64,000 bases of DNA from an uncultured Candidatus Saccharibacteria bacterium (GCA_964574355.1 CAZNMD010000002.1:16595-80594); one strand, 5' to 3'. Positions 122 through 29,722 are shown, numbered from the stretch's first letter. Numbers and translations are program-made. Notes: generated by a model from the letters alone, not told the origin.

Positions 122-2959
122 ATGAACGAACCTGGGAGAGGCTCGCATGAACGACGATTCGAAACAGCTGAAGAAGAGCTGGCTCATTTGCGAGAACGAG
201 TAGGGGAATATGAAAGAGACGCCCTTGAACATGGGCTTTTGTCGCCTGAGCGTGCGGCTCGTGAGGCGGTGCGTGATTATGCAGGGCTTCAACCTGAAAT
301 TGTTTTACATCCCGAACATCAAATCGAGGAAGGTCTCGCTGGTGATATTGCGCTTGGTCTTTTGCCTGAAGAGCACGATAAAAAGGTTGCTGAATTAATT
401 AGTTTGATTCATGAGCGCGGTATAAAAAATACATTGTCTATTGTTGGGAAAATGAACGATCCACATCTTTCCGATGATTTGGAAAGATATCTTGTTCAAT
501 ATATAAAAGCCGGTTTTCCTATTGAAGGTATATCTGAGAAAGATCCTTTGTTTAAGGCCCTTTCGATGACGTTATATGAGATTACGTTGCCGGAATCAAA
601 TGTGAGTGAGAATAGTCGACAAGGTGTTCTGAAAGAGCTTGTTTCGGCTATGGAACATTTTTATTCTGGCATGCTTTCAGTTTCGAACGAGTCGGGTGGG
701 CCAGGCTACTATACGATTGAGCTTGCGGTTGCAAATCATAGTAGTGATTTTGTGTTTTACTCCGCTGTCCCGAATGGGAAGCGTGATCTTTTTGAAAAAC
801 ATATTTTGGCAGCTTTTCCGGATGCTCGGATTGCAGAAAGAAAAGATGATTACAATATTTTTAATGAACAAGGAGAATCATTGGTTTCAGTTGCGTCACT
901 TCAAAAGCGAGCGTTGTTTCCAATAAAAACATATCATTTGTTTGAACACGATCCTCTTTCGGCGATTATGAATGCGTTCTCAAAAATTGATCACGATGGT
1001 GAGGGTGCAGCAATTCAGATTGTGATTAAGCCTTCAGGGCCGGATCGACTTGCTCGTTATAAAAAAATGATCGATGACATTACTAAAGGAGCAAGTGTTG
1101 ATGATGTATTATCTCGACCTGAAACAGTTGGTGAGCACGCGCTCGATTTTGCCAAAGCTTTTGGAAGAGAATTGTTTAGTTTTGCCACTGCAAAGAAAAA
1201 GGTTGAGAAAGTTGAAAAAGATGAGCGTTTAGAAGCAAAAAAACATGAAGAAGCTCTTCGTATGAACCAAGGGGCTCTTGAGATTTTACGAAGAAAGGTT
1301 GAAACGCCACTTGTTGAAACAAATATTCGTCTGATCGCTTCGTCTCATAGTGAGCATGATGCCGCTGAAATTTTAACTGATTTGGAGTCTGCGTTTAATC
1401 AGTTTGAACTTACGGAGGGCAATCGGTTTGTCTTTACTCGTCCAACAAGAGCGACAAAAAATGATATTTTGCACCGTTTCAGCTATCGACTTTTTGTTCC
1501 AGAGCGTTCAGTTCCTCTCTCTTTAGGAGAACTTGGAACGGTGCTTCATTTCCCAAAAACAACAAAGGCAGCTGCTCCTCATTTGAAAGTTGCGAAAGCG
1601 GCAACTGCTCCGGCCCCTGTGGGCTTACCAAGTGATGGCGTATTGCTTGGTATGAATCGTGACCGAGGAGGGGACAGAGAGGTGAGGATGACAGGGGAGG
1701 ATCGATTGAGACACCTTTATGTTATTGGTCAAACAGGTACCGGTAAAACAACACTGCTTAAGCAGATGATTGTTCAGGATATTAAAAATGGTGACGGTGT
1801 GTGTTTTATTGATCCGCACGGTTCCGATATCCAAGATATTTTGGCCAATGTTCCCAAGGAGCGTTATGAGGATGTTATTTATTTTGACCCTGGTTATGTC
1901 GCGCGGCCAATGGCGCTCAATATGCTTGAGTATGATGGTCGCTATCCCGAACAAAAGACATTTGTGGTCAACGAAATGCTTTCAATCTTCAATAAGCTTT
2001 TTGATATGAAAACAGCGGGAGGACCAATGTTTGAGCAGTATTTTCGAAATGCGGCGATGCTTGTTATTGATGATCCAAAAGCAGCAGCGACACTGTTGGA
2101 TTTGTCTCGTGTGTTTTCAGATAAAGAGTTTCGTGCAGAAAAATTAGCTACCTGTACAAATCCGATCGTGGTTCAGTTCTGGAAAGAGATAGCTGAAAAG
2201 GCAGGAGGGGAAGCGTCACTTGCCAATATGGTTCCGTATATCACTTCAAAGTTCGATGGTTTTCTTTCGAATGATATTATGCGACCGATTATTGCTCAGG
2301 CTCACTCATCTTTCAATTTCCGTGAAGTGATGGATAACAAAAAGATTTTACTGGTTAATCTTTCAAAAGGTCGGCTTGGAGATATTAACTCACATCTCAT
2401 TGGTCTTATTTTGGTTGGCAAAATTTTAATGGCGGCACTTTCGCGAGCCGATTCGATGGGGACAAAATTACCAGCTTTCTATTTGTATGTTGATGAGTTT
2501 CAAAATGTGACAACTGATTCAATTGCAACCATTCTTTCTGAAGCTCGAAAATATCGCTTATCGTTGCATATAGCTCATCAGTTTATTGGACAATTGCAGG
2601 ACAATATCAAAAATTCTGTTTTTGGAAACGTTGGTTCGATGGCGGCGTTTCGAGTTGGTGCCGATGATGCAGAATTTTTGGAGCGTCAGTTTGCTCCAGT
2701 TTTTTCAGCAAATGATTTACTCAACGTGGATAATCACAATGCATTTATTCGTATGCTTGTTGATGGAAAGCCGACGCGTCCATTTACCATTGAAACGTTG
2801 CCGCTACCGTCAGGGCGCACAGACCATCTCGATAATCTCAAGGAGCTTTCGTATTTGAAGTTTGGTCGGCAAAGAAGTGAGGTTGAGGCAGAAATTATGG
2901 CTCAGTATAAAAAGACAAGTGTTGTAAAGCCAGTAGTAAGTACAGAGGGAAAAGTTTAA
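122..2959 (+). CDS. large P-loop NTPase, VirD4/TraG/HerA-like (DUF87-type) C-terminal ATPase with a ~500-aa N-terminal domain of unknown function
   Basis: 945-aa ORF. Walker A LYVIGQTGTGKTTLL, followed by DPHGD, and Walker B FYLYVDEFQNV. A C-terminal AFRVGADDAEFL segment resembles TraD/TraG C-terminal regions. The N-terminus is coiled-coil-rich with no recognisable domain. Confidence 0.5.
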   Translation: MNEPGRGSHERRFETAEEELAHLRERVGEYERDALEHGLLSPERAAREAVRDYAGLQPEIVLHPEHQIEEGLAGDIALGLLPEEHDKKVAELISLIHERGIKNTLSIVGKMNDPHLSDDLERYLVQYIKAGFPIEGISEKDPLFKALSMTLYEITLPESNVSENSRQGVLKELVSAMEHFYSGMLSVSNESGGPGYYTIELAVANHSSDFVFYSAVPNGKRDLFEKHILAAFPDARIAERKDDYNIFNEQGESLVSVASLQKRALFPIKTYHLFEHDPLSAIMNAFSKIDHDGEGAAIQIVIKPSGPDRLARYKKMIDDITKGASVDDVLSRPETVGEHALDFAKAFGRELFSFATAKKKVEKVEKDERLEAKKHEEALRMNQGALEILRRKVETPLVETNIRLIASSHSEHDAAEILTDLESAFNQFELTEGNRFVFTRPTRATKNDILHRFSYRLFVPERSVPLSLGELGTVLHFPKTTKAAAPHLKVAKAATAPAPVGLPSDGVLLGMNRDRGGDREVRMTGEDRLRHLYVIGQTGTGKTTLLKQMIVQDIKNGDGVCFIDPHGSDIQDILANVPKERYEDVIYFDPGYVARPMALNMLEYDGRYPEQKTFVVNEMLSIFNKLFDMKTAGGPMFEQYFRNAAMLVIDDPKAAATLLDLSRVFSDKEFRAEKLATCTNPIVVQFWKEIAEKAGGEASLANMVPYITSKFDGFLSNDIMRPIIAQAHSSFNFREVMDNKKILLVNLSKGRLGDINSHLIGLILVGKILMAALSRADSMGTKLPAFYLYVDEFQNVTTDSIATILSEARKYRLSLHIAHQFIGQLQDNIKNSVFGNVGSMAAFRVGADDAEFLERQFAPVFSANDLLNVDNHNAFIRMLVDGKPTRPFTIETLPLPSGRTDHLDNLKELSYLKFGRQRSEVEAEIMAQYKKTSVVKPVVSTEGKV

Positions 2960-2982
2960 GTAGATTCTATAAATAAATTTCT

Positions 2983-3828
2983 ATGTCACCTTTTGAAAAA
3001 ATAAATGAGGAAAACGAAGTTCCTGTTGTCGAGGCTGATACTTCGAGTATAGAAACAATCGAACCTTCTGTAGATTCTAAAGAGCAGGAAGAACCTAATT
3101 ATTCTGTGGAAAGTCCAAAGTCGGTAGAAGTTCACGACGAGCCGGTAGCTGTTTTTTCTGATTCTGACGCTGATCGTTTGTATGCAATTCGAACGGAGCT
3201 TTCTGGTGGTGTAAATATGAACGAAGTGAGAGTTGAAGAGCCGGCACCTGTAAGTGTTTCCGAGAGTGATTCTTCCTCTATAGTTTCTAGTAAAAAATCA
3301 GGAGGAATTGTTAATACGTTGCGTCGATGGATGGGTATTGCTGGTGTTGCTGCGGTTGGTTTTGGGGCAATGTCGGAAAGTCAGGGGCAGTCTCTTCCTG
3401 AACGCGAAACTAAAAAAGAAAGTGTATTGGGAGGCGTGCTTCGTTGGGCTCAGCGAGTTGATGGTGAAATGGCAATTGAAAAAAAGATGTATGGAAACCG
3501 ATGGTCGCCAGGTCCTAATGAGCACACAGAGCTTCGAACCATGAAAGGATATGCTGCAGATGTTGTGGATGTTGTTCATGCTGATCAAAATGGAAATGTG
3601 GTTCGGGTATTACAAAGAGCTGTGCACAGGAAAAATGTTCCTGTTGGTGTCACTGTTGGTATTTCAGGAGGACATGGGCAGGGCAGGATACTTCCGGGTC
3701 AGCGCCGACATGTTCCAACAAATCTCTATCAGGCAAATATGATGAAACAACAAGGAGTGAACATTGGAACTATGGTTCGAAGTAGTACGGGCAAGGTAAC
3801 TATGGAGGTTAAGCCGGTGAAAAAATAA
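2983..3828 (+). CDS. hypothetical protein with an acidic N-terminus and one transmembrane helix
   Basis: 281-aa ORF, 24 nt downstream of the ATPase. Asp/Glu/Ser-rich N-terminus, transmembrane segment WMGIAGVAAVGFGAM, Gly-rich C-terminal part. Confidence 0.55.
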   Translation: MSPFEKINEENEVPVVEADTSSIETIEPSVDSKEQEEPNYSVESPKSVEVHDEPVAVFSDSDADRLYAIRTELSGGVNMNEVRVEEPAPVSVSESDSSSIVSSKKSGGIVNTLRRWMGIAGVAAVGFGAMSESQGQSLPERETKKESVLGGVLRWAQRVDGEMAIEKKMYGNRWSPGPNEHTELRTMKGYAADVVDVVHADQNGNVVRVLQRAVHRKNVPVGVTVGISGGHGQGRILPGQRRHVPTNLYQANMMKQQGVNIGTMVRSSTGKVTMEVKPVKK

Positions 3829-8270: not shown

Positions 8271-8340
8271 AGCGCACCTCCTTTCTTTCCATAGTGTATG
8301 CCTCTCTTTTCAAGAGTCAATCTCTATGGTGGATAAATGT

Positions 8341-8382
8341 ATTTTTTTTACAAAAAAACCGAACCAAAAAACGGATTCGGTT
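8341..8382 (-). terminator. terminator of small ORF P2
   Basis: Minus strand: CCGAA...TTCGG hairpin followed by TTTTTTTGTAAAAAAAA. Confidence 0.45.
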
Positions 8383-8396
8383 GTTCTGAATATGGG

Positions 8397-8609
8397 TCAG
8401 ATACATATCTCCCCAGAGCGTATTTTTTGATGAAACATTTCTGCTCCACCAGCTGTCATCCAATGGTTGATGAGTTCAATGTTGCTTACTTCGTGCGCTG
8501 GTTTTTGTAGTGCCCATGCGGTATTTCGTCGATGATCCTCGTCACTAAGAATTGTTCCTAGTTCTCTCTCGGCAAGTCGGTCTCCTGGCATTGAATATTG
8601 GTCACACAC
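8397..8609 (-). CDS. small hypothetical protein P2 (~70 aa from the GTG start), paralog of P1
   Basis: AGGAGG, 6 nt, then GTG, the same arrangement as P1. The ORF track's longer version (to 8699) lacks a ribosome-binding site. Sequence MCDQYSMPGDRLAERELGTILSDEDHRR...NHWMTAGGAEMFHQKIRSGEICI. Confidence 0.45.
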   Translation of the reverse strand: MCDQYSMPGDRLAERELGTILSDEDHRRNTAWALQKPAHEVSNIELINHWMTAGGAEMFHQKIRSGEICI

Positions 8610-8734
8610 AGAACCCCTCCTTGTTTTTGTCTTCTTATAGTGTACGCTTCTTGATTTTATACAACAAGCCACTTGTGAACTGTGGTACATAAATAACACC
8701 GCAGTCAGGATAACCCTGGTGCGGTGTGTTTGGC

Positions 8735-8977
8735 TTATGGATATTCGATCCAGCCATGTTGTCCTTTTGGGGTAAAGTTCACGGTTGCCTGTGGTTCTTC
8801 TGCAAAGCCGATAACATGAGTTCTTCCTCGAAATGTAATGGAGTTATTGGTCTCCATGTGAGAAGATTCGACGATAAAAAGGATTCTAACGTCTCCACTT
8901 CGAAACAGCAGTTTTTTCCTTTGGGGGTCGAACTTCTTTGGACCGCCCGTAAGGGGAAAGCGATCTGTTCGTCTCAT
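8735..8977 (-). CDS. small hypothetical protein P3 (80 aa)
   Basis: ATG preceded by AGGAG; unrelated in sequence to P1/P2; followed by a hairpin. Confidence 0.45.
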   Translation of the reverse strand: MRRTDRFPLTGGPKKFDPQRKKLLFRSGDVRILFIVESSHMETNNSITFRGRTHVIGFAEEPQATVNFTPKGQHGWIEYP

Positions 8978-9037
8978 AATCTCCTATAACCATACTCATC
9001 TTTTTTCTTTTGTCACGTGGTGAGTAAGGTTGTATGT

Positions 9038-9496
9038 TTATGAAAGATATTTTTTACTTGCCCAGTAATAGACGAGTACGCGTAAGGCAAATGCCGTCAT
9101 TTCAATGTATCCACTGAGGTTATAGGTATAAAACAAAAGACCATATATGCGGGCACACCCACTGACGATGAGTATATATAACGTAGAAAGCAGTAGTATT
9201 TCTTTTGGGTCAAATCCTTGATAGCTGTGCTTTATAACTCGTGTTGAGTAGAGAACCCCAAGGAAGGTGATAAGCGGATACACAAAAACAGTTACTATGT
9301 TTTTCCAGAAAAAATCTGCTTGTATAAATGTTGACCAAGTAAGGTCAAAGGCGAGCCCAAGAAGCATTGGGATCATAAAACCTGCCTGTAGCCAATGAAG
9401 CAGGGCAATTTTCCAGCTTTCTGTTTTTTTCTTAGCGTGCATGGGGTGGTGTATATGGTCTACCCGCCGCTTCTTCACGATGAACCATTTCTTCAT
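9038..9496 (-). CDS. integral membrane protein
   Basis: 152 aa, 4 predicted transmembrane helices, basic N-terminus; a 50-codon hydrophobic upstream ORF overlaps its start. Confidence 0.55.
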   Translation of the reverse strand: MKKWFIVKKRRVDHIHHPMHAKKKTESWKIALLHWLQAGFMIPMLLGLAFDLTWSTFIQADFFWKNIVTVFVYPLITFLGVLYSTRVIKHSYQGFDPKEILLLSTLYILIVSGCARIYGLLFYTYNLSGYIEMTAFALRVLVYYWASKKYLS

Positions 9497-15603: not shown

Positions 15604-15988
15604 TGGTGGAGATGGGGGGAATCGAACCCCCGTGCAAGATGAAAATCTAGGCGGGTCTACGGCACGTAGTCTGCTTTGTTTACGAGAGTGAAGATAGAAA
15701 GCGGACAAAAGTCTTCATTCTCGGTGTTTCTTTATTTAAAACAATAGCCGAAACGATCTACTGTTCGAACTTGGGATATATCGCCCGCTTTCCTCGTCCA
15801 AGTGCCGAAGAAAGAGACGTCACGTAGGACTAACCGAAGTTAGGCGAACGCGAGAGCAAAACCGTACGGAGACGGAATTGCCTTGGTCACAGAGCTGTTG
15901 CCAGGTGTGTTTTGAAGCGGTTTAACGAGTCACTTCATCTCGGTGCCGCGCGCAAAGAGTGTGCATCCTGTCGATGCCGATCATCCCC
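15604..15988 (-). ncRNA. ssrA: tmRNA (SsrA), standard one-piece form
   Basis: 5' end GGGGATGATCGGCATCGACAGGATGC resembles E. coli GGGGCTGATTCTGGATTCGACGGGAT. 3' tRNA-like end GGGGGTTCGATTCCCCCCATCTCCACCA. Candidate tag frame ...AIPSPYGFALAFA followed by TAA. Confidence 0.85.
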
Positions 15989-19646: not shown

Positions 19647-19720
19647 CCACCCTTAGCTCAGTTGGTTAGAGCACCGAGCTTATACCTCGGGGGTCCTTGG
19701 TTCGAATCCAAGAGGGTGGA
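19647..19720 (+). tRNA. tRNA-Ile with anticodon TAT (UAU)
   Basis: Acceptor CCACCCT/AGGGTGG, D-arm TAGCTCAGTTGGTTAGAGCA, anticodon stem CCGAG/CTCGG with loop CTTATAC, T-arm CTTGG-TTCGAAT-CCAAG. CCA is not encoded. Confidence 0.7.
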
Positions 19721-19780
19721 CATTCATTCGTCTGTTGATAGAACCCTCTTTGGTTCGAACCTGTGAAAGGGTTCGTTGTG

Positions 19781-24989: not shown

Positions 24990-25129
24990 ACCAATAGTAT
25001 AGCGCGGTGTTGAACCAGGGAAAAAGGATATATGGAAAGTTTTAGACTAGAGTAGGTTGATTATTTCTATTGTTTCATGGCTAATACAAGATGGCCATTT
25101 ATACACAAAAAAAGTGTTAAAATTGTTGT

Positions 25130-26086
25130 ATGACCACACAGCAGGTTATTAAGGATATACAAAAGAATTTTGATATAAATTCGATTTTTGCTCATAGAAC
25201 TTTTTTACTTGCTGATAAACGAAACCTCCTTGAAGATATTGCTCGAATCATCTCTGAAAGACCAAAACCATTTGTGAAGTGGGTGGGTGGTAAAAGGCAG
25301 CTTCTTGCCCAATTTCGAAAATTAAATTTATATCCACCAGAATTATTTAATATAAAAACGGGAAGATATTTTGAGCCGTTTGTAGGAGGAGGTGCTGTAT
25401 TTTTTGATTTACTCCCCGAGAAGGGGTTTTTGTCTGATTTAAATAAGGAGCTTGTTACGACATACAATGTTATAAAAAAAGATGTTGCTCGTCTTGTTGA
25501 GTCACTTAGGAAACACAAAGTTAATAAAGAGTATTTTTTAAAAATTCGAGCACAAGATCCATATACGCTAAGTGACTTAGACGTTGCTTCACGTTTTATA
25601 TTTCTCAACAGAACTTGTTTTAATGGGATGTATCGAGTGAACAGTAAGGGTGGATTCAATGTGCCGTATGGTAAGTATGAGAATCCTTTAATTTGTGACG
25701 AAGAAAATCTAATTAAAGTTTCAAAAGCACTTCAAGGAATTGAAATAAAGCATCAGGATTATAAAGAAGTTCTAAAGAAGGCTAAAAAAGGGGATTTTGT
25801 TTATTTCGATCCTCCCTACTATCCAGTAAGTAAAACGGCGTCGTTTACGTCGTATACGGCAGAATCATTTCTTGATAAAGAGCAGGTAGAGCTTCGGGAC
25901 ACCTTTTTGGAATTAAGTAAGCGTGGATGTTTTGTAATGCTTTCAAATTCAGATACACCCTTTATAAATGAGATTTATAAAGGTCATAAGGGGGTATGTA
26001 TTAATAAAGTTGAAGCTGGCCGAGCAATTAATTCAAAAGGGACAGGAAGGGGGAAAATTACTGAAGTGCTTGTAACTAATTATTAA
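25130..26086 (+). CDS. Dam-family N6-adenine DNA methyltransferase (alpha class); probable GATC methyltransferase M1
   Basis: KWVGGKRQLL (motif X/I region), FVGGGAVFFDL, DPPYY motif IV; first gene of the operon that contains a DpnII-like endonuclease. Confidence 0.8.
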   Translation: MTTQQVIKDIQKNFDINSIFAHRTFLLADKRNLLEDIARIISERPKPFVKWVGGKRQLLAQFRKLNLYPPELFNIKTGRYFEPFVGGGAVFFDLLPEKGFLSDLNKELVTTYNVIKKDVARLVESLRKHKVNKEYFLKIRAQDPYTLSDLDVASRFIFLNRTCFNGMYRVNSKGGFNVPYGKYENPLICDEENLIKVSKALQGIEIKHQDYKEVLKKAKKGDFVYFDPPYYPVSKTASFTSYTAESFLDKEQVELRDTFLELSKRGCFVMLSNSDTPFINEIYKGHKGVCINKVEAGRAINSKGTGRGKITEVLVTNY

Positions 26087-26091
26087 AAAAA

Positions 26092-27780
26092 ATGGATCAA
26101 AAAATCAAAGCGCAAGATACAACATTTGGTGAATTTCATAAAACAGCATCAGTTATTTATGCAATACCTTCGCTTCAGCGCCCATATACGTGGGATAAAA
26201 AAGATGTCGAAAGACTATGGGATGATATTCTTGAAAATCCACCTGGTTACTATGTTGGTAGTATTGTAGCTATTGTTGACGGTGGCACAATCAGTAGAGA
26301 CTTGATAATTGATGGTCAACAAAGATTGACATCATTGTCTTTGATCTTGGCCGGACTTAAAAAGTACATTTCTCCCAAAAAATCAGAAGAATTTAGGTCT
26401 ATAGAAGAAGAAATTGATGAAATACTTATTAAGTACGGTAAAAATAGCAATCAGGTTAGACTTGCATTTTCGGATGGTAATTCAGATCAGATGTATCAAT
26501 CAATAGTATTCGGCACATTACTATCTGAGGCTAATTTAACAAAGTTACAAAAACGATTTATAAATAATTATAAGTCTATAGAGGATAGAATAAAAAAATA
26601 TTTTCCTAAGTGTAAAATTAATGAAATTAGAAATTTTGTTGATAAGATAAAAAAACTACAACTTATTTTTATAAAATGCTTAGACAGATCAGCTGCTTTC
26701 AGTCTATTTGAAAGTATTAATGATACAGGTGTCAGTCTTGCTACTACTGATTTATTAAAAAATGCCATTTTTGAAGCGGTCAGTGGAGATAAAGAAAAAT
26801 ATGCCTACGTTGAAGAAAACTGGAAAAAAATGTTCAGAGATTTTTCTGAGGATAGTAAGTACTTAAAGACGTACATAAGACATCATTGGATCGGGACCCA
26901 TTATTATGTCAGCCATGCGAATTTGTTTGATAGTTTCGTTAAGGAATATAAAAACAAAGAATTAGAATATGCGAGGTCTTTGTTTGAACTATCAAATATA
27001 TACTTATCTATTAGAAATGCCCAAACAGAAAGTTTAATTAAACTTCCAAAGAAAAGATTCGAGGTGGCTGAGATAAAAGAAGTGCTAACTTTCTTGAGCT
27101 TTCTTGGGGTTGATCAAGTTTACTCTGTATTGTTATATATTTATCAAAACGGAATTTCTACATTCGTAAAAGATCTAAACAAATTAGTTGCTTTCCAATT
27201 TTTATACAAGTATATACCAGGAAGCCCGAGTGTTCCTGAGAAAAAGTATTTTGCGAATTATTGTGAAGGGCAAATTGATAAACAAAAATTTTTTAGCGGT
27301 TTAACAGGTTTATGTATAGACCAAAAAGAACAGTTTATTAAAAACTTTTTCGACAGAATAAAGTATATTGAAGGGAAAAGTGGTGATATTCAGTTTGTTT
27401 TAGAAAGAGTGGCTTATAAAATGGGTGGGGTAAATAAATTTGCTGAAGCTACAATTGAACATATTGTTCCTCAAGATGATACGGATCCCGTCTTTAAGAA
27501 TTTTAAGTTGGATAATGATGAGGTATATAGACTAATCCATCAAATTGGTAATTTAACGGTTATGGAGAGATCAGAAAATTCTGATAGAAATATATTTAAT
27601 CAAAATCTCGTATTAAAATTTCCTAACTATAAAAAGCACTACGCAAAAATAAATCAGGCTGTTGATAAATATAACTTCTTATCTGATCCGGAGTCGGCTA
27701 TTAAAAAGAGAGGTCAAAATATCGCTAGTCAGGCTTTTGATCTTTTTATGGATACATTGAAAACGGGTAAATGGAAATAA
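26092..27780 (+). CDS. DUF262 / DUF1524 two-domain nuclease (GmrSD-like, type IV restriction-like)
   Basis: N-terminal IPSLQRPYTWDKKDVERLWDDI and DGQQRLTSL (DUF262 hallmarks). C-terminal EHIVPQ ... IGNLTVMERSENSDR (DUF1524 His-Me finger). 6 nt after M1; overlaps the endonuclease start by 10 nt. Confidence 0.75.
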   Translation: MDQKIKAQDTTFGEFHKTASVIYAIPSLQRPYTWDKKDVERLWDDILENPPGYYVGSIVAIVDGGTISRDLIIDGQQRLTSLSLILAGLKKYISPKKSEEFRSIEEEIDEILIKYGKNSNQVRLAFSDGNSDQMYQSIVFGTLLSEANLTKLQKRFINNYKSIEDRIKKYFPKCKINEIRNFVDKIKKLQLIFIKCLDRSAAFSLFESINDTGVSLATTDLLKNAIFEAVSGDKEKYAYVEENWKKMFRDFSEDSKYLKTYIRHHWIGTHYYVSHANLFDSFVKEYKNKELEYARSLFELSNIYLSIRNAQTESLIKLPKKRFEVAEIKEVLTFLSFLGVDQVYSVLLYIYQNGISTFVKDLNKLVAFQFLYKYIPGSPSVPEKKYFANYCEGQIDKQKFFSGLTGLCIDQKEQFIKNFFDRIKYIEGKSGDIQFVLERVAYKMGGVNKFAEATIEHIVPQDDTDPVFKNFKLDNDEVYRLIHQIGNLTVMERSENSDRNIFNQNLVLKFPNYKKHYAKINQAVDKYNFLSDPESAIKKRGQNIASQAFDLFMDTLKTGKWK

Positions 27781-28640
27781 AAATGAAAAAAAATTTTAGT
27801 AACCTAATAAATACATTTAAAAGTTCAATTAAAACTTGGGAGTATTTTATTAATTGGAATAAGGTATTTTCTCATCGTTCAGATTTAGAGATAGTTCTCA
27901 ATAAGTTAAATTATTTACTCGGTAAGGAAAATTTAAAAGAAGAATTTGTAAAATTATATAGCTCAAACCCTGACATAATTAAAGCTCTCCCGGTTTTATT
28001 GGCGGTCCGAGAAAACAGACTCGAGGTGTTTGATAAAGTGAATAAGAGTGTAGAATTCTTTGATTTTTCTGGTAAAGAAAAAGATGCTGCTAAGTATTTT
28101 GAATTTCTAAATAAATCAGGCCTGGCGCAATTGTTTCAAAAAGATGGAATCAAAAATCTTGTTGATTATGTTGTGGGCGTAGAGGTTGGACTTGATAGTA
28201 ATGGACGAAAAAATCGAGGTGGTACTTTAATGGAAGAAATAATCAGTTCCTATCTAACTGACTTTTGCAATAAGAATGGGTATGAATGTCTTGCTCAAGC
28301 TCGACCTGGTGCTATAAAGGCTAAGTGGGGTTTTGATATTAAGATTGATAAATCAGAACGTAGTTTTGATTTTGCGATATATAACGCTAAAAATAAGAAG
28401 TTAAAGTTATTTGAGGCAAATTTTTATAATGGTGGTGGTTCAAAACTAAAAGCTGTTTGCGGTGAGTTTAAAGCTCTTTATGATGAATTAAAATCCCAAG
28501 GTATTGATTTTGTTTGGATCACTGATGGGTTAGGTTGGAATACAACAAAAAGACCTCTCGAAGAAACGTATAATCACAATGAGTATGTATTTAATTTAAA
28601 TATGCTCGAAGGGGGTGTGCTAAATGAATTGGAGTGGTAA
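27771..28640 (+). CDS. type II restriction endonuclease, DpnII/MboI family (GATC)
   Basis: Near-colinear match to my recollection of R.DpnII: NLVDYVVGVEVGLDSNGRKNRGG, FYNGGGSKL, WITDGLGWNTTKRPLEETY...FNLNMLE. 289 aa versus 288 aa. Confidence 0.8.
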   Translation: MEIKMKKNFSNLINTFKSSIKTWEYFINWNKVFSHRSDLEIVLNKLNYLLGKENLKEEFVKLYSSNPDIIKALPVLLAVRENRLEVFDKVNKSVEFFDFSGKEKDAAKYFEFLNKSGLAQLFQKDGIKNLVDYVVGVEVGLDSNGRKNRGGTLMEEIISSYLTDFCNKNGYECLAQARPGAIKAKWGFDIKIDKSERSFDFAIYNAKNKKLKLFEANFYNGGGSKLKAVCGEFKALYDELKSQGIDFVWITDGLGWNTTKRPLEETYNHNEYVFNLNMLEGGVLNELEW

Positions 28641-28646
28641 CAACCC

Positions 28647-29408
28647 ATGGCTATAGAAAAAACTACAGAGTTAACACTACATCCCGAAGAATTTGAACTG
28701 GAATGTACAACCGTCTGGGCGTTTCCTCGCCGTGGTAACTGGGCTACACATACATCAGATTGGAGAGGGAATTGGTCTCCTGAAGTGGCTCGAAATCTCA
28801 TTCTGCGATATTCCAAAGAGGGTGATGTATTGCTTGATTCAATGATTGGTGGTGGCACAACCGCGATTGAGGCGAAAATATTGAATAGAAATATTATTTA
28901 TTCTGATGTAAATCAGGCGGCACTTGAAAGAACAAAAAAAGCTCTCAATTTTAAGGTTGATAATAAGGCGTGGCAAAGAGGGTTTAAGTGGGACTCTCGG
29001 AATCTTTCTAAGATAAAAGATGAGACTATCGACTTTGTACTTACTCATCCTCCATACGTAGATATAATTAAATACAGTGAAGGAAAGCTGGTTGATGATC
29101 TATCGAACATAAGTGATATAGATGTTTTTTGTGGTGAAATGGAAAAAGTTTCGAAAGAGTTTTATCGGGTCCTAAAGCCTGGTAAATTTTGTGCAATTCT
29201 TATGGGAGATACGAGGCGAAAGAAAATGTATCAGCCGCTTGCCTATAAAGTAATGGACCGCTTTCTTAAGGCTGGACTCTTACTCAAAGAAGATATTATA
29301 AAGCGTCAATTCAACTGTAAGGCCACTGGATTCTGGGTAACTAAATCAAAAGAGTCTAATTTCTTACTCATCATGCATGAACACTTGTTCGTGTTTCAGA
29401 AGATATAA
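28647..29408 (+). CDS. second DNA methyltransferase, M2 (N6A/N4C, motif I followed by motif IV)
   Basis: LLDSMIGGGTTAIEA (FxGxG) followed ~70 aa later by THPPY; final gene of the tightly packed four-gene operon. Confidence 0.6.
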   Translation: MAIEKTTELTLHPEEFELECTTVWAFPRRGNWATHTSDWRGNWSPEVARNLILRYSKEGDVLLDSMIGGGTTAIEAKILNRNIIYSDVNQAALERTKKALNFKVDNKAWQRGFKWDSRNLSKIKDETIDFVLTHPPYVDIIKYSEGKLVDDLSNISDIDVFCGEMEKVSKEFYRVLKPGKFCAILMGDTRRKKMYQPLAYKVMDRFLKAGLLLKEDIIKRQFNCKATGFWVTKSKESNFLLIMHEHLFVFQKI

Positions 29409-29544
29409 ATTTAGTTTAGTTTAAAATAAGGTACTACAATTTAAAAAGAGGGTAGGGACCGCGAGTACGCTTTTCGACCCTTACAGGGTCAGTACCCGTT
29501 TCCGATTTGTTCAGTATCAGAATACTTCACAAATAACGGAGAAC

Positions 29545-29595
29545 GGCTTCGAATCCCACCACGCGACTGAAGCAGTTCAGTCGCTCTCTCCGCAT
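29545..29595 (+). repeat. inverted partial copy of the tRNA-Ser 3' end, interrupted by a 24-nt hairpin
   Basis: GGCTTCGAATCCCACC[ACGCGACTGAAGCAGTTCAGTCGC]TCTCTCCGCAT, versus the reverse complement of the tRNA-Ser 3' end GGGTTCGAATCCCACCCTCTCCGCA. Confidence 0.7.
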
Positions 29596-29627
29596 AAAAA
29601 ATCACCTCGCCAAAGCGAAGGATTTTT
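29596..29627 (-). terminator. terminator of tRNA-Ser
   Basis: AAAAATCACCTCGCC-aaa-GCGAAGGATTTTT; closely similar in form to the ssrA terminator. Confidence 0.6.
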
Positions 29628-29633
29628 CAAATG

Positions 29634-29722
29634 CGGAGAGGGTGGGATTCGAACCCACGGTCCAGTTTAACCCGGACAACACCTTAGCACGGTGCCGCTT
29701 TCGACCGCTCAGCCACCTCTCC
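29634..29722 (-). tRNA. tRNA-Ser with anticodon GCT (type II, long variable arm)
   Basis: GGAGAGG acceptor, D-stem GCT/AGC, anticodon loop GTGCTAA, variable arm GTCC...GGAC, T-arm GTGGG-TTCGAAT-CCCAC, 3' CCTCTCC-G. Confidence 0.8.

Follow-up and report, generated by a model that had tools for sequence, protein, structure and literature searches.

A DUF262–DUF1524 nuclease gene in predicted GATC restriction-modification cassettes of Patescibacteria

Why does a nuclease gene of the DUF262–DUF1524 kind lie inside a restriction-modification (R-M) operon predicted to act at GATC? The question is raised by a 64,000-nucleotide stretch of DNA from an uncultured Candidatus Saccharibacteria bacterium (GCA_964574355.1, CAZNMD010000002.1:16595-80594), which was analysed as a whole and is called the window hereafter. 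Four open reading frames (ORFs), all on the plus strand, occupy its positions 25130-29408: a first DNA methyltransferase gene (M1), the DUF262–DUF1524 gene (G), a DpnII/MboI-family endonuclease gene (R) and a second methyltransferase gene (M2). A sequence-only reading of the window had placed these genes at these positions in one operon, and had taken the whole for an unusual fusion of type II and type IV logic. Matches to Pfam, TIGR and PADLOC profiles bear out the four identities, and the operon structure holds as well, with co-directional genes separated by spacers of 5 nt (M1-G), 2 nt (G-R, with the start of R at 27783) and 6 nt (R-M2). The fusion is no one-off: the architecture recurs and has a protein clade of its own.

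The block and its relatives point to an undescribed three-part restriction system. Genes nested in BREX (bacteriophage exclusion), type I, Hma (helicase-methylase-ATPase) and DISARM (defence island system associated with R-M) systems were known before as a source of new defence functions. What appears to be new is the nesting inside a plain type II cassette, along with a clade of proteins that keeps to a single recognition sequence. Full-text literature searches of partial coverage returned no prior description of a DUF262–DUF1524 gene in a GATC type II cassette. A published study of embedding covered Hma, BREX, DISARM and type I systems, and the most enriched neighbours of the GmrSD family in a neighbourhood study (PMC4619093, Table 1) included type I, type III and integron-type genes, not D12 or DpnII.

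The clade of G and its link to GATC-type methyltransferases

The product of G (26092-27780, plus strand, 562 amino acids (aa)) combines a DUF262 domain, a ParB-like nucleoside triphosphatase (NTPase), with a helical middle domain and a DUF1524 domain, a His-Me/HNH nuclease. Pfam recognises it as GmrSD_N (PF03235, E-value 1.8e-35) and GmrSD_C (PF07510, 3.1e-11). The motifs DGQQR (residues 74-78), EHIVP (at 456, with EH at 456-457) and GNLT (at 486) are intact and invariant in the clade, and from these catalytic motifs G is predicted to be an active nuclease. The clade comprises about 75 clusters of proteins of about 560 aa with at least 37% identity, mostly from Patescibacteria bins. An alignment of 37 members, down to 38% identity, retains 54 invariant residues including both catalytic motifs.

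Loci were gathered from genome and metagenome collections and by exact look-up; their ORFs were called by a simple rule and annotated by probing with the proteins of the window and with the alternative nucleases. Retrieval by clade peptide patterns may bias which relatives were found, not what adjoins them. Nearly all loci are metagenome bins, in which labels such as Nitrosarchaeum or Gammaproteobacteria may reflect mis-binning or transfer, and the apparent frameshifts of L009, from long-read bins, may be sequencing errors. The tree of G is a neighbour-joining tree without support values.

Of the non-redundant clade loci, 28 have a flank of 1 kb or more, and in every one of them a cassette-type methyltransferase (D12 or N6_N4) lies within 3.5 kb of G. 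The same linkage occurs in 4 of 94 other DUF262 loci, two of these four being a clade locus with a split G (Fisher p = 1e-23). An R-slot gene is present in every clade locus with both flanks (14/14), and the gap at 55 junctions flanking G has a median of 8 nt. Sister genes with 27-30% identity to G (here G') are equally linked: L183 reads M1-G'-MutH-M2, L018 carries M1-G', and L184 has DpnII and a methyltransferase beside a G' that is divergent from M and R. No clade member standing alone was found among the loci, and none in viral contigs or plasmids, where the best matches were 31% (partial) and 27%. The G clade is thus tied, exclusively and deeply, to GATC-type methyltransferases.

In a probe-independent Pfam scan of the 98 immediate neighbours of 62 out-group genes, D12, N6_N4, DpnII and MutH were absent from the 25 most frequent families. 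Several of these neighbours are dnd-type genes (DndB, PAPS_reduct, Aminotran_5), and branches of the superfamily track particular modification modules in this way.

The partners of G in the window are well defined. M1 (25130-26086, plus strand, 318 aa) is a Dam/DpnM-class (D12, alpha) N6-adenine DNA methyltransferase of predicted GATC specificity. It matches MethyltransfD12 (PF02086, 3.8e-60) and TIGR00571 dam (1e-84; score 284 against a cut-off of 114.85 bits), its best solved relatives are DpnM (2dpm, 2e-73) and then E. coli Dam (2e-35), and it carries FVGGG at residue 84 and DPPY at 227. R (27783-28640, plus strand, 285 aa), a type II endonuclease of the DpnII/MboI family, fills a slot whose content is swappable. 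It covers positions 1-277 of the 278 of the DpnII profile (PF04556, 2.2e-92) and matches PADLOC REase_II at 2e-95. The ORF has an upstream ATG at 27771, with which G and R would overlap by 10 nt; the ATG at 27783 is taken as the true start because it gives the 285 aa that its close homologs share. At 77-89% identity there are more than 120 clusters of relatives, nearly all of this length (two are of 286 aa).

M2 (28647-29408, plus strand, 253 aa) is an N6_N4-type DNA methyltransferase, which matches N6_N4_Mtase (PF01555, 1.8e-20) in two stretches of swapped order and PADLOC MTase_II (PDLC03376, 2.3e-87). Its motif I (MIGGG, residue 66) precedes motif IV (HPPY, residue 134) and M2 is therefore not of the DpnA-type beta class; in the DpnA-like enzyme of other loci, DPPY (residue 45) comes before motif I (residue 233). 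M2 also weakly matches UPF0020/Trm14-like models.

With a DpnM-like methyltransferase, a DpnII-family endonuclease and a second methyltransferase, the block resembles the DpnII/MboI type of GATC R-M system. Canonical systems of this type have three genes and lack the DUF262–DUF1524 gene. The DpnII genes follow the order dpnM-dpnA-dpnB (methyltransferase, methyltransferase, endonuclease), whereas the window has M1-G-R-M2, and its M2 differs from the DpnA/MboC-like beta-class second methyltransferase of the DpnII/MboI kind. The GATC assignment, made earlier, is supported as a predicted specificity by the Dam/DpnM class of M1 and the full-length DpnII family match of R. From these families, and from the compatibility of the methyltransferases with successive nucleases, M1 and R would act at GATC by N6-methyladenine (m6A) formation and by cleavage of the unmethylated site, respectively.

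The mobile cassette and its exchangeable nuclease slot

The limits of the cassette (25114-29413, plus strand) are those of the DNA that the window shares with a cassette in an unrelated genomic context, locus L139. By blastn the two are 83% identical over 25114-27788 and 28659-29413, and nothing beyond these ranges is shared. Their G proteins are 93.4% identical, M1 82.5% and M2 91.3%. In the R slot, L139 has a 236-aa MutH-family gene in the place of DpnII, with breakpoints at 27788 and 28659. This is a clean nuclease replacement at gene boundaries, and it defines the extent of the cassette. The horizontal mobility that had been suspected is evident from such homology to other cassettes over 25114-29413 between unrelated flanks.

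The exchange is not confined to this pair. Five unrelated families occupy the R slot, namely DpnII, a MutH type of about 206 aa, a MutH type of about 236 aa (MutH 2e-20, Sau3AI 9e-15), a family that we call X205, and DUF6996/DUF6997. Sister taxa on the G tree differ in nuclease type in three instances (window/L139, L007/L060, L009/L010). The methyltransferases of the clade cassettes fall into three families (D12, the 253-aa type and a DpnA-like beta type of 273 aa), and the genes come in at least five orders. MutH, Sau3AI and DpnII-type enzymes act at the same target site. Different nucleases are found in near-identical M1/M2 backbones, where an R of another specificity would be lethal, and all R-slot nucleases should therefore share the GATC target. 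We infer that the constant partner of G is the GATC specificity and no single protein. The cassettes are thus a clear case in nature of nucleases of one specificity replacing each other within a fixed frame of methyltransferases.

Two of the slot families deserve a mention of their own. In L181 (7762-8532), the nuclease slot is filled by a 256-aa DUF6996/DUF6997 protein, flanked by a Dam-class and an N6_N4 methyltransferase, that matches PADLOC REase_II (PDLC03513, 3e-30); it is probably a GATC type II endonuclease. X205 proteins (L004 8675-9292, L007 5969-6583, L071 5368-5976 and others) are of about 205 aa, have no Pfam match and hit PADLOC REase_II (PDLC03457) at 4e-26. They appear to be another family of GATC endonucleases, one without a Pfam model. 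Between R and M2, L012 (4957-5166) and L017 (7154-7378) carry a helix-turn-helix (HTH)-like ORF of 69-74 aa followed by an ORF of about 100 aa, neither of which is found in the window; the HTH-like ORF may encode a controller (C) protein. Another kind of rearrangement is seen in L063, the one clade locus observed without R, where a 447-aa large serine recombinase (2457-3800, minus strand) lies in the place of the nuclease gene between G and the methyltransferases. L179, of cassette order M1-G-DpnII-M2, carries directly after M2 an Mrr-family (type IV) gene (8326-9234), which makes a third kind of nuclease at that locus.

The closest relatives of R belong to G-less operons of M1 (318 aa), R (285 aa) and M2 (253 or 254 aa), which lie in unrelated neighbourhoods in all three sampled contexts (eight loci). 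The window is 82-86% identical to them in M1, 81-89% in R and 88-95% in M2. Against three such cassettes (L171, L173 and L175), blastn homology ends at 26086/26087, the stop of M1, and restarts at 27778 (L171, L173) or at 27783 (L175). The extra DNA, 26088-27777 on the plus strand, amounts to about the G ORF alone, so that G is an optional, gene-sized module. The block is best explained as a mobile GATC R-M cassette (M1, R, M2) that has acquired G as an optional module. As a type, such M1-R-M2 cassettes are very common in Patescibacteria.

Homologous operons without the insert, at unrelated loci, had been expected in the sequence-only reading to indicate a chance insertion. The closest operons are literally of that description, but the conclusion fails, because relatives of G occur only in GATC cassettes.

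Two side observations concern the fate of the cassettes. In L175-L178, G-less loci on Gottesmanbacteria-type contigs, the cassette lies between a resolvase/recombinase block and a gene for an HTH-fused DEAD/ResIII helicase, a setting that suggests carriage on an integrative element. In L017 (4791-6477, same as L077), G is split into two overlapping ORFs beside intact M1, X205 and M2, which suggests that the R-M genes can outlast the decay of G.

The possible roles of G

Judged by its sequence, G forms one sub-lineage with HEC-06 and DndI and is not of the BrxU/GmrSD branch. Its best PADLOC match is HEC-06 (PDLC04154, 2.3e-65, residues 5-550 against profile positions 7-562 of 569), ahead of the Orf5 models (up to 8e-53) and of the model of DndI proper (PDLC02701, 3.7e-27). 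Since the N-terminal half of DndI scores 1e-153 on PDLC02701, the Orf5 of PADLOC is the DndI family. A search of solved structures by profile ranks DndI first (1.2e-29), then SspE (1.3e-16), with BrxU at an E-value of 0.07. The AlphaFold model of G (predicted local distance difference test score 88.3) superposes over its full length on DndI (Foldseek 3e-14; template modelling (TM) scores 0.69/0.66), as against domain-level superposition on SspE and BrxU (TM 0.3-0.4; 0.31 for BrxU).

DndI, of the IscS-DndBCDE-DndI defence system based on phosphorothioate (PT) (PDB 9JFL), has the same architecture of DUF262 NTPase and DUF1524 HNH nuclease in 596 aa (562 in G). It is likewise tied to a DNA-modification module, and it coexists with a second nuclease module on the same mark. 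DndI is a non-specific nickase that restricts unmodified DNA; the PT mark of the host stimulates its ATPase, which frees it from self DNA, and its dnd modification module also serves a second nuclease module, DndFGH (PMC11662687). A review in EcoSal also holds that two restriction components may be served by one modification module. G and DndI are about 18% identical and cannot be aligned in the middle domain (residues 289-450). Their partner marks differ too, a backbone sulfur for DndI and base methylation at GATC for G, and no dndBCDE or iscS genes occur in the window flanks or the clade loci, whereas some out-group loci carry dnd genes. SspE, of the SspABCD-SspE PT system, resembles G in having a host-mark-sensing N-terminal DUF262 domain and a DUF1524 nickase. 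It differs in its length of 771 aa and is alignable only over about the first 100 residues and part of the nuclease domain, and no ssp genes accompany G.

On this basis we tentatively favour a reading by analogy, in which G would add a second restriction arm, one that is coupled to GATC methylation. As with DndI and PT, its binding to DNA would be non-specific. On host DNA, N6-methyl-GATC would stimulate the DUF262 NTPase and G would be released; where the mark is missing, the DUF1524 domain would nick or cut the DNA. A single methylation mark would in this manner license two different nucleases. The second arm could catch invaders missed by the type II enzyme, for instance phages that inhibit it or genomes with few GATC sites. 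It is conceivable, with the same reserve, that the G clade is the first base-methylation counterpart of DndI and SspE, made of NTPase-gated HNH nucleases that would read N6-methyl-GATC as a self mark.

The exclusivity of the linkage, the constant GATC specificity through nuclease swaps, the tight gene spacing and the position of DndI as closest solved relative are all consistent with such a coupling. The coupled reading explains the confinement of G to GATC cassettes, and it has a parallel in dnd systems, where two nucleases likewise depend on one mark. Homology alone allows either this mode of action or a modification-dependent one, and the genomic context must decide.

Several points weigh against coupling. 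HEC-06, the best PADLOC match of G, behaves as modification-dependent in the absence of any cognate methylase. Both HEC-06 and a 22%-identical homolog from Bacteroides protect E. coli from T4 and not from T4-GT7, whose cytosines are unmodified (bioRxiv 10.1101/2025.02.28.640651). The PT-sensing Tyr25/Tyr30 of DndI/SspE is replaced by a clade-invariant Leu (L28; PSLQR against PTYQR in DndI) and no sensing pocket was identified in G, nor was any DUF262 protein that senses m6A found in a full-text literature search. G-less cassettes are far commoner and evidently sufficient, and the split G of L017 leaves M1, R and M2 intact. A self-sufficient pair of M and G should also occur without R, yet no such locus is found among the 14 with two flanks, and the single R-less case (L063) is disrupted by a recombinase. 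Finally, independent events number fewer than 28, since the loci share descent and, with few exceptions, derive from metagenome bins.

Two arguments on the action of G were discarded. The PT-sensing tyrosine was tried as a discriminator, but its replacement by Leu in the clade excludes PT sensing and is uninformative on m6A. A DndB-like regulatory role for G was set aside; the full HNH motif is invariant.

The close rival of the coupled reading is an embedded type IV enzyme, a serious candidate even if a somewhat doubtful one. G would act independently of the methyltransferases and cut hypermodified phage DNA (5-hydroxymethylcytosine (hmC), glucosyl-hmC or similar) that escapes the GATC enzyme. 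It would reside in the cassette only to be transferred and expressed along with it and to be kept stable by the addictive R-M pair. Type IV behaviour, restricted to DNA modified with hmC, glucosyl-hmC or 5-methylcytosine, is documented for GmrSD, BrxU and relatives of HEC-06, not for DndI or SspE. The HEC-06 match of G is full-length and comes with the DGQQR and EHxxP motifs. HEC-06 works as a single gene in E. coli and needs its DGQQR and EH motifs (Payne et al., bioRxiv 10.1101/2024.01.29.577857). The protection against T4, and not T4-GT7, by HEC-06 and its distant homolog favours this view in turn, as do the optional, gene-sized nature of G with its separate decay in L017 and the retention of R in all complete loci.

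The nesting of GmrSD-like genes in BREX, type I R-M and Hma systems is moreover an established pattern, which is thought to be complementary. BrxU, GmrSD and TgvAB are all DUF262–DUF1524 nucleases nested in a system that targets unmodified DNA and giving complementary cover, and HEC-06 too is nested in a methylase-containing defence system. The hosts are not the same, however: BREX or type I systems for BrxU, GmrSD and TgvAB, with no reported tie to one recognition sequence, and Hma or type I systems for HEC-06, as against type II GATC cassettes for G and 28 of 28 relatives. It is here that the type IV reading falls short. It does not account for the confinement of the clade and its 27-30% sister to GATC cassettes in spite of changes of R, methyltransferase family and gene order, whereas embedded type IV genes such as BrxU are found in several types of host system. 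G is also only distantly related to the type IV members with known biochemistry (BrxU at E 0.07 and TM 0.31). The HEC-06 match is itself indecisive: half of DndI scores 154 bits on the HEC-06 models, DndI thus matches them about as well as G does, and the match does not settle how G acts.

A coupling without sensing of the mark is unlikely. G might process the 5'-GATC ends or nicks that all GATC nucleases produce alike and so make restriction irreversible, or serve as an extra killer when methylation lapses and so reinforce post-segregational addiction. The same exclusivity to GATC cassettes and the presence of R in 14 of 14 complete loci would suit it, as would the target site shared by MutH, Sau3AI and DpnII-type enzymes. 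The five R-slot families being unrelated, protein–protein recognition is disfavoured and a DNA-level link is indicated. Such roles are nevertheless without precedent in the DUF262–DUF1524 family, no sequence feature points to recognition of ends, and G' of L184 is divergent from M and R.

That G is a functionless passenger, inserted once into an ancestral GATC cassette and carried by descent in a purely historical association, is very improbable: the loci are indeed related by descent, the nearest cassettes are G-less and lie elsewhere and G is split in L017, but 54 residues including both catalytic motifs are invariant across 37 sequences, identity between the window and L139 is higher in G (93%) than in M1 (82.5%), the association outlasts repeated R replacement and changes of methyltransferase family and gene order, and an unselected G would be easily lost from so mosaic a cassette, whose M1 and M2 in the window resemble G-less cassettes as closely as they do L139.

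If G reads GATC methylation, the sensing of a self mark by DUF262 would extend from backbone sulfur to ordinary base methylation. The cassette would then be a one-mark, two-nuclease system, whose second arm needs no GATC site and would close the escape that phages gain by site avoidance. With its swappable R slot and five nuclease families, it would form a modular platform of GATC immunity in Patescibacteria. Were G instead a type IV enzyme, the cassette would be a compact natural pairing of restriction against unmodified and modified DNA in very small genomes.

Composition and genomic setting of the block

The block is AT-rich, as had been judged by eye. Its GC content is 0.333 for a window mean of 0.413, the lowest of all non-overlapping 4.3-kb windows. 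Its neighbours are housekeeping genes (Na/H exchanger, bPH_2, YibE/F, PyrH and YceG). By its PyrH, the host falls within Patescibacteria, close to Vogelbacteria and Yonathbacteria. The absence of an integrase noted before holds over about 3 kb upstream and 4 kb downstream of the block. A promoter scan gave fewer promoter-like sites than in shuffled sequences, and a terminator scan nothing informative inside the operon. GATC has an observed/expected ratio of 0.86, mid-range among 4-nt palindromes. Avoidance of GATC by the host, as a sign of long residence, was dropped as this ratio is uninformative.

The sequence-only reading had also placed the block at the 3' end of a tRNA-Ser gene, which is correct as a matter of position. 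A tRNA-Ser(GCT) gene (29633-29722, minus strand; ARAGORN, and Rfam tRNA at 55.8 bits) faces the block with its 3' end, 224 nt from M2. Only some 4 of 29 loci show this adjacency (the window, L064, L072 and L063), and no att-like direct repeats flank the block, the sole tRNA-related repeat being an inverted partial copy in the spacer. A classical tRNA-integrating island was rejected, as the block lacks an integrase and its far border does not repeat the 3' end of the tRNA in direct orientation.

The spacer between M2 and the tRNA gene (29409-29632, unstranded), outside the cassette, has a GC content of 0.43 and contains a hairpin and the inverted partial tRNA copy. A terminator-like hairpin of tRNA-Ser lies at 29605-29620 on the minus strand. 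At 29545-29595 on the plus strand, the spacer resembles the 3' half of a tRNA, as an inverted partial tRNA-Ser T-arm and acceptor split by a 25-nt hairpin. This stretch may be left over from an old rearrangement or from a convergent second tRNA gene. The spacer has no homolog in any fetched locus, and in its 224 nt no Rfam family is found (at gathering threshold or E<1) beyond the tRNA itself and weak chance matches.

Elsewhere in the window, a complete transfer-messenger RNA gene lies at 15604-15988 on the minus strand (Rfam, 113 bits), absent from the ARAGORN output. A tRNA-Ile gene at 19647-19721 on the plus strand has the anticodon TAT. In most bacteria AUA is decoded by a lysidine-modified CAT tRNA, and a genomic TAT isoacceptor is uncommon.

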